The notes below the pieces were generated by a model. That model did not search any database. It was not told the DNA's origin and was given only the letters and a program-made list of their open reading frames with translations. This document shows, piece after piece, positions 22,633-26,865 of a stretch of DNA of 57,087 nt. Made by a program: the position numbers and the translations under genes. The stretch lies in NCBI GenBank assembly GCA_021621525.1, contig JAJVUU010000001.1:1-57087 (forward strand). Reading direction: 5' to 3'. The DNA comes from Bacillales bacterium (lineage in GTDB: Bacteria; Bacillota_I; Bacilli_A; RFN20; CAG-288). Each line of letters begins with the position of its first letter. The first letter of the stretch is position 1.

Positions 22633-22661
22633 TTGACTAAGTCTTCAAAAAACATTAAACT
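22633..22661 (+). promoter_or_regulatory. Sigma-A-type promoter driving riboswitch 1
   Basis: -35 TTGACT (22633..22638), a 17-nt spacer, and -10 TAAACT (22656..22661). Confidence 0.6.
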
Positions 22662-22766
22662 AAACTCGCTTGGGGGAGTAGTTGTCGCCAAAAGCGAGGC
22701 TATGTCAACAACATGGTGTCCAAGGTTCAGGGCATCTGGCAAGTCATAAATAACGAGACTTAAGCA
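22662..22766 (+). promoter_or_regulatory. yybP-ykoY (Mn2+) riboswitch-like aptamer, copy 1
   Basis: It has the conserved GGGGAGTAG box (22673..22681) and a distal ATAAnnnGAGAC box (GAGAC at 22755..22759). The closing helix is GCTT (22668..22671) / AAGC (22762..22765), with internal helices in between. Confidence 0.6.
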
Positions 22767-22813
22767 GAATTACCAAAGTCAGTTTTGGTTTTTCTGCTTT
22801 GGTCTCGTTTTTT
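22753..22813 (+). terminator. Riboswitch 1 expression platform: long intrinsic terminator that sequesters the GAGAC box
   Basis: Nested stems are ACGAGAC/GTCTCGT, GCAGA/TCTGC and ACCAAA/TTTGGT, followed by TTTTTT. The 5' arm overlaps the 3' part of the aptamer, so the two folds are mutually exclusive. Confidence 0.7.
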
Positions 22814-22843
22814 CTCTCTCAGACCACAACGGAGGTTATCTAT

Positions 22844-23884
22844 ATGGGTTGGTGGGTTATTCCGGTTTACGCTCTGGACTTGGCTGCAATGGTTTTCTTG
22901 TCCTTCTTCCTTGGCAATCTGGTCGATATGCTGGACAAGAAGACAAAAATCTCAGGCGCATTCATCGGCGGCGTGCTTCTTGCAGCCGTCACGTCTCTTC
23001 CTGAGCTGTTCACGGCTCTTTCAAGCATCTTCTTGGTCAACGAGCCTGAATATGTCGTCGGAGACTTGCTAGGTTCCATCGTCTTCGACATCGTCTGCCT
23101 TGCCTTGGAGACATTCATCTTCGTCAAAAACTTCAAAAATGCCAAAATCCAGAAATTTCACCTTATCAACGGTGTTGCCTGTCTGATAATGTACGGTTTC
23201 GCTGCCTATGCCTTCTTTGCTCCAAAAGAAGCACAGCTGATGCTTGGCGACATCAATGCCATGTCCATCCTCATCTTTGCCTTATATATCCTGACAGTCA
23301 TCTTCCAGCCCAAGGAGGAAGATAAGCATGACGACAACGTAGATATAAAATGGTCTTTGAAGAAGATTGTCATCCTCTTTGTCATTTCCTCCATCGCATT
23401 GATCGGTTCATCCATTGCCCTTACCTATCTCACCAAGGGAATCCAGAATCTTGCCCCTGTCCTCAGCGGTTCTGTTGCCGGTGCCTTGCTTCTTGGTATC
23501 GGAACATCCATTCCGGAAATCATCTCCACTGCACAGCTCTTCCACAAGAAAAATTATGATGCAGGTATCGGAAACATGATTGGTTCCTGCACCTTCGATT
23601 TTGCCATCTTCGCCCTGTCTGACTTCCTTTCCTGGCATCAATACAACGATCATGTCGATGCATCCACTGGCGAATTCATCATCTCCCAGAGAGGCCTTTT
23701 TATCGCCACACCAGATGCCATACAGTTTGAACTCTTCGGCATCGGCATCTGCGCCTTGATCGTCGCCTTCCTAGCCTTGAAGTGTTTCACCAAACTCTTC
23801 GACAACAAGAAATTCTGCTACATTGCCACCGGCTTCACAGCCATCGCATCCTTGACCATGTATCTTCTCATCTTCATTCTCTAA
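22844..23884 (+). CDS. CaCA-family cation antiporter (Na+/Ca2+ exchanger-like membrane protein)
   Basis: 346 aa from ATG 22844 (GGAGG SD 8 nt upstream). It has two alpha-repeats, GGVLLAAVTSLPELFT and LLLGIGTSIPEIIST. Confidence 0.75.
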   Translation: MGWWVIPVYALDLAAMVFLSFFLGNLVDMLDKKTKISGAFIGGVLLAAVTSLPELFTALSSIFLVNEPEYVVGDLLGSIVFDIVCLALETFIFVKNFKNAKIQKFHLINGVACLIMYGFAAYAFFAPKEAQLMLGDINAMSILIFALYILTVIFQPKEEDKHDDNVDIKWSLKKIVILFVISSIALIGSSIALTYLTKGIQNLAPVLSGSVAGALLLGIGTSIPEIISTAQLFHKKNYDAGIGNMIGSCTFDFAIFALSDFLSWHQYNDHVDASTGEFIISQRGLFIATPDAIQFELFGIGICALIVAFLALKCFTKLFDNKKFCYIATGFTAIASLTMYLLIFIL

Positions 23885-23908
23885 ATATCAGAAAAGCAAA
23901 AGAAAGAC

Positions 23909-23993
23909 TCAGGGGAGTAATTTATCTTCATCATCCGTCAGCACGCAGAGAGAACTCTGCCGGATGATGACCCATAGCGGTAATGAGACCTGA
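23909..23993 (+). promoter_or_regulatory. yybP-ykoY (Mn2+) riboswitch-like aptamer, copy 2
   Basis: It has GGGGAGTAA (23912..23920) and GGTAATGAGAC (GAGAC at 23985..23989). The closing helix is TCAGG (23909..23913) / CCTGA (23989..23993). An internal 10-bp helix is TCATCATCCG / CGGATGATGA. No terminator is visible downstream. Confidence 0.55.
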
Positions 23994-24012
23994 CAAGAAA
24001 GGAACATCATTC

Positions 24013-26865
24013 ATGAAAAAGAATGAAACAAGGTCCGATAGGACCATAACTTCTTTTCCCTGCCACGCTCAAACCGCTTTTATTGTGGCTGAGGAATATC
24101 AAAGCAATCCCACAGATGGACTGAGTGAGGAAGAAGCCAAGCGAAGACTGAAAGAATACGGCCCGAACAAAATAGAAGAAAAGAAGAAAGCACCTTTCTT
24201 CATCAAGTTTTTAAGACAGTTCAAAGAACCGATGGTCATCGTTCTTCTTCTGGCTTCATTCATCTCTTTTGGTATCTTCCTTGTCAATGGCTTCATCAAT
24301 ATCAGTCAGGGTGCTTCCTTCTTCCTTTCAAAAGACGGAAGGGAAAACACGGAATACATCGATGGAATCGTCATCCTTGCCATCATCTTCCTCAATGCCA
24401 TCATCGGTGCCATCGAAGAGCAGAAATCCGAGCAGTCCCTGAACGCCCTGAAGAAGCTGTCTTCTCCCATCTGCAAGGTAAAAAGAGAAGGAAAGACGCT
24501 TCTTATCAAATCCGAGGATGTCGTCATAGGCGATATCGTGATACTGGAGGAGGGAGACATCCCTCCTGCAGATATAAGACTGTCCTTTTCCCTTGGCCTG
24601 AAATCAGATGAATCCTCATTGACAGGAGAATCTCTTCCCGTAGAAAAGGATGCTGAAATCGTCCTAAAGGAAGATACCTTGATCGCCGAAAGAAGCAACA
24701 TCGTCTACTCCGGCTGTCCGATATCCCAGGGAAGAGGGCAGGGCATCGTCATCCATACCGGTATGGAAAGCGAAGTAGGAAAGATTGCCAGCATGCTAAA
24801 TGATGGCAAAGATGATGAGACACCACTGCAGAAGAAACTATCAAGACTATCAAGACAGCTTGGTCTCATCTGCCTTGGCATCGTCATCATCACATTCCTC
24901 TCAGGACTCCTATGGATCCTTGTCAAAGCCAATCGAAATGGATATGAAAACTTATCCAAAGAAATCCTGTCCCTCTTTGAAGAGGCGATTGCCCTGGCTG
25001 TGGCAGCCATTCCCGAAGGACTTTCAGCCATCGTCACCATCGCCTTGGCCTTGGGTGTCACCAAGATGGTCAAAGCAAACACCATCGTAAGAAAGCTGCC
25101 ATCGGTAGAGACTCTTGGAAGCGTCAACGTCGTCTGCAGTGACAAGACCGGGACACTGACACAGAACAGGATGACGGTAAGAAAAATCTATCTCGACGGA
25201 AAGATAATCGATGCCGAGGATGTCGATAATAAAGAGTCTCTCTTCCTTGCCAAGGGTATGATGCTATGCACGAACGCTTCCATCAAGGATGACAGGATAG
25301 GAGATCCAACGGAAATCGCCCTCCTAGACTTTGCCAGAGCCTTTGGTATGGGAAAGGAAGAGACGGAAAAGCAGGAAAGACGGTTGGATGAACTGCCTTT
25401 CGATTCCGTAAGAAAGATGATGTCGGTCGAAAACGAATGCCAAGGAAGAAAAATCATCTACACCAAAGGTGCACTTGATTCGGTTCTGAAGCATACCACA
25501 AGAATCCAGGAAAAAGGTGTCATCCGTAAAATCACTGCCGAAGACATCAACAGAATCAATATTGCAAACAAAAAACTGGCAGGTAGCGGCTATAGAATCC
25601 TTGCTTTCGGCTATCGCTTTCATGACACCGACGAAAAGATGAAGGAAGAAGACATCATCTTCGTCGGATTTGTCTCCTTGATCGATCCAGAGAGAAAGGA
25701 AGCTGCTCCCGCCGTAAAGAAACTACGTGAAGCAGGAATCCGTACCGTCATGATAACAGGCGACCATCAGGACACTGCCTTTGCCATTGCAAAGAACCTA
25801 GATATTGCAAATGACATCTCCGAGTGCTGCAGCGGAGATGAGCTATCCTCGATGACCCAGGAAGACCTCCGTAGACGGGTCCAGACAGCAAACGTCTTCA
25901 GCAGAGTCTCCCCTCAGGACAAGGTCAATATCGTAAAAGCGCTCAAGGAAGAAGGCAATATCGTCAGCATGACCGGTGATGGCGTCAATGATGCTCCCTC
26001 CCTGAAGGCTGCCGACATCGGCATCGCCATGGGCATCAACGGAACAGATGTAGCCAAAAGTGCAGCCGACATGGTCTTAAGCGATGATAACTTTGCCTCC
26101 ATCGAAAAAGCCGTCGAAGAAGGAAGAAGCATCTACAGCAATATCAAGAAGACCATCTTCTATCTTCTTTCTTCCAACTTCGGGGAAGTCCTGGTCATGT
26201 TCTTCACCTTGCTCCTTGGTTTCCCGACACCGCTTGAAACGTTGCAGATTCTTTGGATCAACCTGATCACGGACTCGCTTCCTGCCATTTCCCTTTGTAT
26301 GTCAGCCAAGGAAAAAGACATCATGAAGCAACAGCCACGGAATCCAAAAGACGGTATCTTCTCCCATGGCGGATTCATATTCACTCTAGGCTATGGTACC
26401 CTCATCTTCTTGATCACATTCGCAGCCTACTTGATTCCCGGTATCCTTGCCTTCAGTGGCTCCAAGGCCTCTTTTGCTTTACAGATAAATGAAAGCTTTG
26501 AAAGAAGCTACCAAGGGTTCATCGCCTGTCTTGAAAACGAAGCCGTCCACAGGCAATGCACGACCTTTGCCTTCTGTGCCTTAGGCCTGTCACAGATTTT
26601 CCATATGCTCGGCATGTGCGACATCAAACAAAGCTTTCTTCATCTCTTCAAAGAAAGGAACATCATGGTTTATATCAGCTTCTTCCTTGGCCTGGCCTTA
26701 CAGATATTCGTTACGGAAGTGCCAGGAATCACGGATGTCTTCTCAACCATATCGCTAAGCTTCTTGGAATGGATGATTTTGATTTCGCTGTCTGTCATTC
26801 CTCTTGTCGTCCATGAAATGTTGGTGCCGTTCTTCAAGAAGCATGACCACCTACGGATCATATGA
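24013..26865 (+). CDS. P-type cation-transporting ATPase, type IIA (Ca2+/Mn2+ pump-like)
   Basis: 950 aa from ATG 24013 (AAAGGAA SD). The motifs are TGES, DKTGTLTQN, MITGDH, TGDGVNDAPSLK and PEGL. The track's ATG at 23983 lies inside the riboswitch. Confidence 0.9.
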   Translation: MKKNETRSDRTITSFPCHAQTAFIVAEEYQSNPTDGLSEEEAKRRLKEYGPNKIEEKKKAPFFIKFLRQFKEPMVIVLLLASFISFGIFLVNGFINISQGASFFLSKDGRENTEYIDGIVILAIIFLNAIIGAIEEQKSEQSLNALKKLSSPICKVKREGKTLLIKSEDVVIGDIVILEEGDIPPADIRLSFSLGLKSDESSLTGESLPVEKDAEIVLKEDTLIAERSNIVYSGCPISQGRGQGIVIHTGMESEVGKIASMLNDGKDDETPLQKKLSRLSRQLGLICLGIVIITFLSGLLWILVKANRNGYENLSKEILSLFEEAIALAVAAIPEGLSAIVTIALALGVTKMVKANTIVRKLPSVETLGSVNVVCSDKTGTLTQNRMTVRKIYLDGKIIDAEDVDNKESLFLAKGMMLCTNASIKDDRIGDPTEIALLDFARAFGMGKEETEKQERRLDELPFDSVRKMMSVENECQGRKIIYTKGALDSVLKHTTRIQEKGVIRKITAEDINRINIANKKLAGSGYRILAFGYRFHDTDEKMKEEDIIFVGFVSLIDPERKEAAPAVKKLREAGIRTVMITGDHQDTAFAIAKNLDIANDISECCSGDELSSMTQEDLRRRVQTANVFSRVSPQDKVNIVKALKEEGNIVSMTGDGVNDAPSLKAADIGIAMGINGTDVAKSAADMVLSDDNFASIEKAVEEGRSIYSNIKKTIFYLLSSNFGEVLVMFFTLLLGFPTPLETLQILWINLITDSLPAISLCMSAKEKDIMKQQPRNPKDGIFSHGGFIFTLGYGTLIFLITFAAYLIPGILAFSGSKASFALQINESFERSYQGFIACLENEAVHRQCTTFAFCALGLSQIFHMLGMCDIKQSFLHLFKERNIMVYISFFLGLALQIFVTEVPGITDVFSTISLSFLEWMILISLSVIPLVVHEMLVPFFKKHDHLRII

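Follow-up and report, generated by a model that had tools for sequence, protein, structure and literature searches.

Two RNA leaders lie in series within a 57,087-nucleotide (nt) stretch of DNA (here called the window), copy 1 upstream of a gene for a CaCA-family antiporter and copy 2 upstream of a gene for a type IIA P-type ATPase. Does each of them sense manganese, and what would two such sensors do in a row? We consider it highly probable that both leaders are three-way-junction manganese riboswitches of the yybP-ykoY family, copy 1 serving as an ON switch for the CaCA gene and copy 2 as a second check on the ATPase gene. The parts, the structural subforms, and the target classes are already known; what is modestly new is the presence of two differently built sensors in series in one predicted transcription unit.

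Structure and conservation of the leader upstream of the CaCA gene

Copy 1 is a structured RNA that has been conserved among relatives. Its promoter and aptamer comprise the following features.

22633 to 22661, forward strand: promoter-like sequence TTGACT, 17 nt, TAAACT, with 9 of 12 consensus matches
22668 to 22765, forward strand: copy 1 aptamer, a three-way junction without P4, represented by 35 instances
22668 to 22674 with 22759 to 22765, forward strand: P1.1
22675 to 22680, forward strand: L1 5′ strand, GGAGUA
22681 to 22684 with 22751 to 22754, forward strand: P1.2
22685 to 22697, forward strand: P2 hairpin
22698 to 22707 with 22737 to 22745, forward strand: P3.1
22708 to 22714, forward strand: L3, ACAACAU
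22715 to 22736, forward strand: P3.2 hairpin
22746 to 22750, forward strand: linker AUAAA, standing in for P4
22755 to 22758, forward strand: L1 3′ strand, GAGA

The predicted transcription start falls at about the first base of P1.1, and TTGACTAA and TAAACT/TAGACT boxes were found upstream of the leader in most copy 1 relatives. The leader carries GGGGAGUAG and then the distal GAGAC box; GGGGAGTAG lies at 22673 to 22681 and GAGAC at 22755 to 22759. Of the 79 loci fetched, 34 had the same leader 5′ of the CaCA gene. Uncultured gut Bacilli are a common source of homologues of this protein, the nearest genome record being that of a Candidatus Enterosoma sp. (93% protein identity).

Copy 1 statistics were taken from an Infernal alignment of the 35 instances. 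In this alignment, 93.2% of the cells were paired, compared with 80.8% after shuffling (93.2% being reached in 0/500 shuffles) and 22 to 44% when the partner was slid, and changes on both sides were observed at 22 of the 29 pairs. An alignment fitted to a structure favors that structure. Nevertheless, the slid controls argue that the pairing signal is real, and so does RNAalifold, which without guidance predicted P1.1 and P1.2 as well as portions of P2 and P3.1. In P1.1, the 7 pairs were 97% formed, with both-side changes at 6 of them.

The unpaired boxes were conserved as well. GGAGU and the next G of the L1 5′ strand were invariant, and the A of GGAGUA was kept in 34 of the 35 instances; AGA of the L1 3′ strand was invariant in the 34-sequence alignment, and the longer box read GAGAC in 32/35 instances. 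Likewise, CAACA of L3 did not vary, and the adjoining C-G pair of P3.1 was present in 35/35. The linker between P3.1 and P1.2 measured 5 nt in 30 instances, 6 nt in 4, and 7 nt in 1, and its sequence was loosely UNAAA-like (AUAAA, UUAAU, UUCAU, AGAUA) with a variable first base. As only these 5 to 7 unpaired bases precede the closing of P1.2, there is no room for a P4 helix in copy 1.

Overlap of the copy 1 aptamer with a terminator

An intrinsic terminator begins inside the copy 1 aptamer.

22752 to 22809, with a U-run to 22813, forward strand: intrinsic terminator hairpin, free energy (ΔG) of −32.1 kcal/mol

This hairpin takes up in its 5′ arm both the L1 3′ GAGA box and all of the P1.1 3′ strand, which makes aptamer and terminator mutually exclusive. 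The segment from 22668 to 22815 folded with a ΔG of −58 kcal/mol (z score, −6.6). An equivalent hairpin with a U-tract, likewise starting inside the aptamer, was found in 35/35 copy 1 relatives (ΔG of −16 to −35 kcal/mol), and across these instances the terminator pairs 7 to 12 of the 12 bases formed by the GAGAC box and the P1.1 3′ strand. By its layout, copy 1 thus has the predicted geometry of a metal-activated antitermination ON switch. A preliminary description of the locus, made from the sequence of the window, had proposed the promoter, both boxes, a long terminator that takes up GAGAC together with the closing helix's 3′ strand, and the ON geometry itself; each of these was recovered at the positions given above, and the overlap that the last of them demands recurs in every relative.

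Indeed, the closest published parallel to copy 1 is the Streptococcus pneumoniae mgtA riboswitch, whose three-way junction has UNAAA in place of P4, with a terminator 3′ of it (Martin et al. 2019, PMC6649816). More generally, in this family a short single strand can take the place of either P2 or P4 (PMC6649816). By the published description, copy 1 shares with mgtA the order P1.1-L1-P1.2-P2, the unit P3.1-L3-P3.2, the 5-nt linker in place of P4, the terminator competing with P1.1, and the ON-switch geometry. The S. pneumoniae target, a PII-type Mn2+/Ca2+ ATPase placed under a three-helix aptamer (PMC6649816), belongs to the class of the second gene of our locus. However, the P4-less aptamer of the window directly precedes a CaCA antiporter, not the ATPase, and its host is an uncultured RFN20-type gut bacterium. 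The idea that copy 1 is a new P4-less variant was ruled out, as the S. pneumoniae riboswitch has exactly that form.

Structure and conservation of the leader upstream of the ATPase gene

Copy 2 occupies part of the interval, exactly 128 nt long, between the end of the CaCA gene and the start of the ATPase gene. It too is a conserved structured RNA, with the following features.

23909 to 23993, forward strand: copy 2 aptamer, a three-way junction without P2, defined by a covariance model match and ten sequences
23909 to 23913 with 23989 to 23993, forward strand: P1.1
23914 to 23919, forward strand: L1 5′ strand, GGAGUA
23920 to 23922 with 23982 to 23984, forward strand: P1.2
23923 to 23927, forward strand: 5-nt joiner
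23928 to 23937 with 23961 to 23970, forward strand: P3.1
23938 to 23944, forward strand: L3, UCAGCAC
23945 to 23960, forward strand: P3.2 hairpin
23971 to 23980, forward strand: weak P4 remnant, CC..GG
23985 to 23988, forward strand: L1 3′ strand, GAGA
23998 to 24026, forward strand: ribosome-binding region of the ATPase gene, with a Shine-Dalgarno (SD) sequence AAAGGAA at 23998 to 24004 and the start codon at 24013
24007 to 24012 with 24021 to 24026, forward strand: start-codon hairpin UCAUUC/GAAUGA, with AUG in the loop

Within the intergenic gap, GGGGAGUAA and GGUAAUGAGAC flank a perfect 10-bp helix, UCAUCAUCCG/CGGAUGAUGA, formed by 23928 to 23937 with 23961 to 23970 and corresponding to P3.1; the boxes were located as GGGGAGTAA at 23912 to 23920 and GGTAATGAGAC at 23979 to 23989. 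The preliminary description had placed a second leader in a gap of this length before a type IIA ATPase and had noted these motifs, the 10-bp helix, and the lack of a terminator, and the present analysis bears it out on all of these points. No terminator was found 3′ of copy 2, and there is no U-run in its P4.

Recognition of this element was based on R1, a covariance model trained solely on copy 1-type leaders, whose E values are rough owing to a shortened calibration. With filters off, copy 2 was the second-best R1 match in the 57-kb window (20.2 bits; E = 0.011), the next match scoring 11.8 bits. R1 located such an element just 3′ of the CaCA gene in eight genomes, that of the window (23905 to 23997) included. 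A metagenome pattern scan, in which solely the L1, L3, and GAGAC boxes were fixed, added three new lineages in which the element lies 21 to 29 nt before a gene for a P-type ATPase of 950 to 966 amino acids. The resulting set consists of ten sequences from about eight lineages, all before P-type ATPases.

Pairs in copy 2 were counted from positions anchored on the invariant boxes, as MAFFT misregisters one sequence (L004; L numbers denote the compared loci) in P3. In the ten sequences, 93.9% of the positions were paired, versus 79.5% after shuffling (93.9% being reached in 0/1000 shuffles) and 30 to 48% after sliding, and a compensatory change was seen at 11 of 18 anchored pairs; the 3′ register of P3.1 was picked by complementarity and is biased accordingly, while P1.1 and P1.2 are unbiased. 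The five anchored pairs of P1.1 include combinations such as CAGG/CCUG, UAGG/CCUA, and UUGG/CCAA. The L1 5′ sequence GGGAGUAAU and the box AUGAGAC were both present in 10/10, and L3 read UCAGCAC (UCAACAC in L059), with the adjoining G-C and C-G pairs kept in 10/10. In all ten sequences, the spacer between P1.2 and P3.1 consists of 3 to 8 unpaired bases with no P2 hairpin.

A three-way junction lacking P2 has been described for the Escherichia coli alx aptamer (PMC12153347). The two share the loss of P2, the few unpaired bases between P1.2 and P3.1, a short P4, and an L3 unlike that of the mntP type. Furthermore, neither has a terminator of the Gram-positive type overlapping the aptamer, and control is probably exerted after transcription initiation. 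In alx, the termination site lies in P4 and the target is a TerC-family exporter (PMC12153347). Copy 2, in contrast, occurs in a Bacillota lineage upstream of a P-type ATPase, its L3 is UCAGCAC, and its P4 is without a U-run. Alx-like aptamers, in which Mn sensing is coupled to alkaline pH, are described as confined to the Enterobacterales (PMC12153347), and the loss of P2 in copy 2 is for this reason probably independent. Copy 2 may therefore share the alx layout by convergence and not be an alx orthologue.

The start codon of the ATPase gene lies in the loop of a hairpin of 5 to 6 bp, partly within the coding sequence, with equivalents in L004, L006, L030, and L092 and compensating changes in two of them (CAAUC/GAUUG in L004, AUUGC/GCAAU in L092). 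No link between this hairpin and the copy 2 aptamer was established. For a translational mechanism of copy 2, models of SD and AUG accessibility conflict and vary with the length of coding sequence included.

Membership in the yybP-ykoY family

Membership of the leaders in the yybP-ykoY family was addressed with the Rfam model RF00080 (current name, Manganese; 177 positions; cutoff, 45 bits), which is built around four helices and a long P4. The model gave no match on the whole window, on a 1.5-kb region (E ≤ 10), on 14 related loci, or on 8 metagenome loci. The preliminary description had regarded a score below the threshold as grounds for giving up the assignment. To the letter this outcome was obtained; as a valid test, however, it failed on the controls. 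The validated E. coli mntP leader (L080:1962-2058) scored 41.6 bits, under the cutoff, and the validated E. coli alx leader (L081:1873-2002) was not matched at all (E ≤ 10; 301 nt). RF00080 expects four helices with a long P4 and so is uninformative when it stays silent on three-helix members; it was dropped as an arbiter.

In 9 kb of E. coli DNA searched with filters off, R1 ranked mntP (L080:1963-2075) first, with 19.6 bits (E = 0.0024), and alx (L081:1873-2002) second, with 14.0 bits (E = 0.056), with the background setting in from 7.6 bits. R1 aligned end to end with the mntP aptamer. Moreover, two L1 G residues are needed for metal binding in this family (PMC8546581, PMC6649816), and an invariant AGA in the L1 3′ strand, just before the 3′ strand of P1.1, has been used as a family criterion (PMC6649816). 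In the family, the adenine of L3 coordinates the metal, and a C-G pair of P3.1 beside that loop receives the adenine of L1. Copies 1 and 2 both have the whole functional core, consisting of the L1 G residues, the L1 3′ AGA, the C and A of L3, and the C-G receptor pair of P3.1. The conserved L1 5′ strand of the family, GGGGAGUA, is likewise present in copies 1 and 2. Judged from these sequence features, both leaders are members of the yybP-ykoY (manganese) family, each in a three-helix form. The family assignment made in the preliminary description is thereby upheld, by conservation with compensatory changes and by the reciprocal recognition of mntP and alx.

Compared with the four-way-junction Mn2+ riboswitches (Lactococcus lactis yoaB, Xanthomonas oryzae, E. 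coli mntP), both elements have similar L1 and L3 sequences, P1.1 as the switch helix, and the predicted docking of two helical legs. However, each element of the window is without one of the four helices and is not seen by RF00080. That silence would also suit the view that the leaders are other structured RNAs (a protein-binding leader or plain attenuators) with a chance likeness in motifs to yybP-ykoY. This is hardly credible, however, given that R1 picks out both validated E. coli riboswitches and that all gene associations are with metal exporters.

As Rfam is blind to two validated three-helix forms, genomes of uncultured gut Bacillota will systematically be annotated without such manganese riboswitches. 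Lost with them is a hint that some transporters labeled "calcium" export manganese.

A P4-less leader of the manganese type precedes an MntP gene at L091:1621-1750 (minus strand) and gave a weak match to RF02617, "SSRC10" (28.2 bits, below the cutoff). Going by its sequence, the consensus of SSRC10, listed as a Streptococcus "sRNA", resembles the three-helix manganese riboswitch of streptococci in its terminated state.

Transporter genes and phylogeny of the CaCA family

The two genes downstream of the leaders are as follows.

22844 to 23884, forward strand: CaCA-family transporter gene, 346 amino acids, with two alpha-repeats (Pfam PF01699, Na_Ca_ex; E = 1.3e−23)
24013 to 26865, forward strand: type IIA P-type ATPase gene, 950 amino acids, with Pfam E1-E2 ATPase domains

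Both had been assigned to these classes in the preliminary description, and the profile matches agree. The CaCA protein gave an NCBIfam calcium/sodium antiporter match below the cutoff and a distant match to NCX_Mj; it is predicted to be a Mn2+ (possibly also Ca2+) exporter. For the ATPase, the best NCBIfam model was that of a PMR1-type Ca ATPase, and the best solved relatives were Listeria LMCA1 and human SPCA1. A function as a Mn2+/Ca2+ efflux pump is predicted.

Control of a CaCA antiporter by a riboswitch of this family is not new. Bordetella pertussis BP3410 is a CaCA-superfamily Mn exporter under a yybP-ykoY riboswitch, and Mn, unlike Ca, induces it (PMC8546581). There, premature termination is relieved by Mn2+, and Mn export has been shown despite a calcium annotation. 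The aptamer of BP3410 differs from copy 1 in having been found by Rfam (E = 8.5e−15; PMC8546581), and it is presumably four-helix; the two CaCA proteins are only distantly related family members and are likened here by the published description. Novelty of CaCA control is ruled out by this precedent. The preliminary description had called both this control and the arrangement of two sensors in one locus less usual; the serial arrangement retains that standing, but the control of a CaCA antiporter, published for BP3410 (PMC8546581), does not.

A tree of 80 CaCA proteins contained a well-supported clade of 31, of which 28 were riboswitch linked. The other three members comprise one locus cut by a contig end and two in which the leader was lost. 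None of the 12 proteins in the sister clade is riboswitch linked, and all are second copies from the same genomes. Riboswitch linkage changed 8 times on the tree, versus 26 label changes after shuffling (0/500). Many of the genomes have a pair of CaCA paralogues from the sister clades, only one of each pair being riboswitch linked (L010/L024, L015/L026, L058/L029, L040/L025, and L012/L031). This linkage suggests that the paralogues have diverged in function, one exporting Mn and the other transporting a different cation. Linkage to a riboswitch would thus mark one CaCA clade as likely Mn exporters and the paralogue as something else, which provides a cheap annotation rule.

At the two loci where the leader was lost, L013 and L014, the CaCA gene retains upstream of it no more than a TTGACTAAC promoter box with a short, AT-rich untranslated region. 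To judge from what remains, this region looks like a natural constitutive variant.

Proposed mechanism and identity of the ligand

In the mechanism favored here, L1 (GGGGAGUA ... GAGA) and L3 (CAACA or CAGCAC, beside the invariant C-G pair of P3.1) would dock around a metal ion and stabilize P1.1. When no metal is bound to copy 1, its GAGA box and P1.1 3′ strand would pass into the terminator, and transcription would stop at about 22813. In excess Mn2+, P1.1 would hold, the terminator would be blocked, and the polymerase would read into the CaCA exporter gene. No terminator was found between the CaCA gene and the ATPase gene, so the polymerase is expected to continue into the latter, and copy 2 on the read-through RNA would provide a second metal check on the ATPase. 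As copy 2 has no terminator, it would act most likely on translation initiation or RNA stability. Observed here were the sequences, their conservation and covariation, the overlap with the terminator, and the likeness to validated riboswitches; from these we infer that Mn2+ is the ligand, that both proteins export Mn, that the two genes are cotranscribed, and that copy 2 has such a readout.

Manganese is the most likely signal at both leaders by analogy. The P4-less aptamer type also precedes MntP genes (L079, L088, and L091/L095), the Bordetella BP3410 riboswitch answers to Mn, and in S. pneumoniae Mn2+ was far more active than Ca2+ in activating read-through, with mgtA upregulated under Mn stress (PMC6649816).

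Several observations weigh against this reading. RF00080 gave no match even when the leaders were presented singly (191 and 141 nt; E ≤ 10), although by the controls this reflects the model. Two metatranscriptomes from the same study contained no contigs at the locus; the runs that contain it are DNA metagenomes or of unspecified kind. The families of both transporters are as a rule named after Ca2+, and in vitro the mgtA aptamer of S. pneumoniae bound Ca2+ more tightly than Mn2+ (PMC6649816). In the window, copy 2 has only two pairs left of P4 (3 to 7 bp in relatives), and its L3 (UCAGCAC, with no 3′ nucleotide) is unlike the canonical L3. No consistent alternative pairing between copy 2 and the SD sequence was found, and in models of seven lineages that compared P1.1 enforced with P1.1 blocked, SD accessibility went up in 3, went down in 1, and stayed flat in 3.

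The transporter families bear on a different account of the signal, in which the leaders have the yybP-ykoY fold but respond physiologically to Ca2+, or to Ca2+ and Mn2+ together, and both proteins export Ca2+. The CaCA protein does match calcium/sodium antiporter models, and the ATPase matches Ca pumps of the PMR1, SERCA, and LMCA1 types. However, PMR1/SPCA-type pumps carry Mn2+ as well, and the same P4-less aptamer sits before MntP genes. The higher affinity of the mgtA aptamer for Ca2+ in vitro is also in line with a calcium response, but read-through in S. pneumoniae is driven far more by Mn2+, mgtA rises in Mn stress (PMC6649816), and the Bordetella CaCA riboswitch is unaffected by Ca2+ and its protein exports Mn (PMC8546581). 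On balance, we regard a physiological calcium response as unlikely.

The state of copy 2 invites another alternative, namely, that it is the decaying remnant of a once-working ATPase leader, now passive in an operon controlled by copy 1. Its P4 is down to CC..GG in the window and in L001, it has neither a terminator nor a coherent SD-sequestering alternative, and there is no strong promoter just upstream. Against decay, copy 2 of the window retains L1, L3, the GAGA box, P1.1, P1.2, and the perfect 10-bp P3.1 undamaged, and the element has been kept in all eight CaCA-ATPase loci, among which CaCA identities are 70 to 93%. Furthermore, validated members of the family can do without P2 or P4 (PMC12153347, PMC6649816). 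A passive copy 2 is therefore very unlikely, and the interpretation of copy 2 as a working metal check is retained.

Origin and possible function of the serial arrangement

Two loci, L092 and L096, share the neighborhood of the window: an exonuclease gene (minus strand), a HAD hydrolase gene, the riboswitch-ATPase pair, and a gene for a giant protein (minus strand). Neither has a CaCA gene, and the P2-less element in both stands behind a −10 box of its own, which indicates that riboswitch and ATPase gene form a self-standing unit. Probably, then, a cassette of riboswitch and CaCA gene came to lie upstream of such a unit. The serial arrangement is most simply understood as two independent units side by side.

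A more elaborate circuit, with two thresholds, can be envisaged but appears doubtful. Copy 1 would turn on the proton- or sodium-driven CaCA protein at moderate metal levels, while the ATPase would need both copies to be metal bound. If this were true, the ATP-consuming pump would be on only at a higher load or would respond more steeply. In a stronger form of this idea, the two aptamers, whose L3 sequences differ (AACAACAU versus UCAGCAC), would also differ in affinity or in Mn2+/Ca2+ preference, making the locus a two-input sensor. The locus offers a natural case for studying the dose-response of serial riboswitches.

Other elements at related loci

Leaders of the manganese type with a terminator were noticed at two further loci, upstream of targets that are not classical for the family. 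At L094:878-967, the target is a 368-amino-acid membrane protein whose N terminus resembles an OadB-type sodium-pump subunit, and at L084:1372-1456 (minus strand), it is the ATP-binding protein of an ABC transporter.

This Bacilli-type locus was encountered in six "cleanbin" records (L003, L007, L013, L016, L027, and L030) that belong to bins titled Bacteroides uniformis, Escherichia coli, Alistipes, Parasutterella, and Paludibacteraceae; the taxonomic labels of these records look unreliable. In the genome of an uncultured member of the Bacillales, group II intron domains (RF02001, 96.6 bits; RF01998, 46.9 bits) were found close to the CaCA locus, at L051:8371-8630 (minus strand). In the window itself, two tRNA genes were detected on the minus strand at 2320 to 2533 (65.6 and 55.1 bits), the second of which has a long variable arm.

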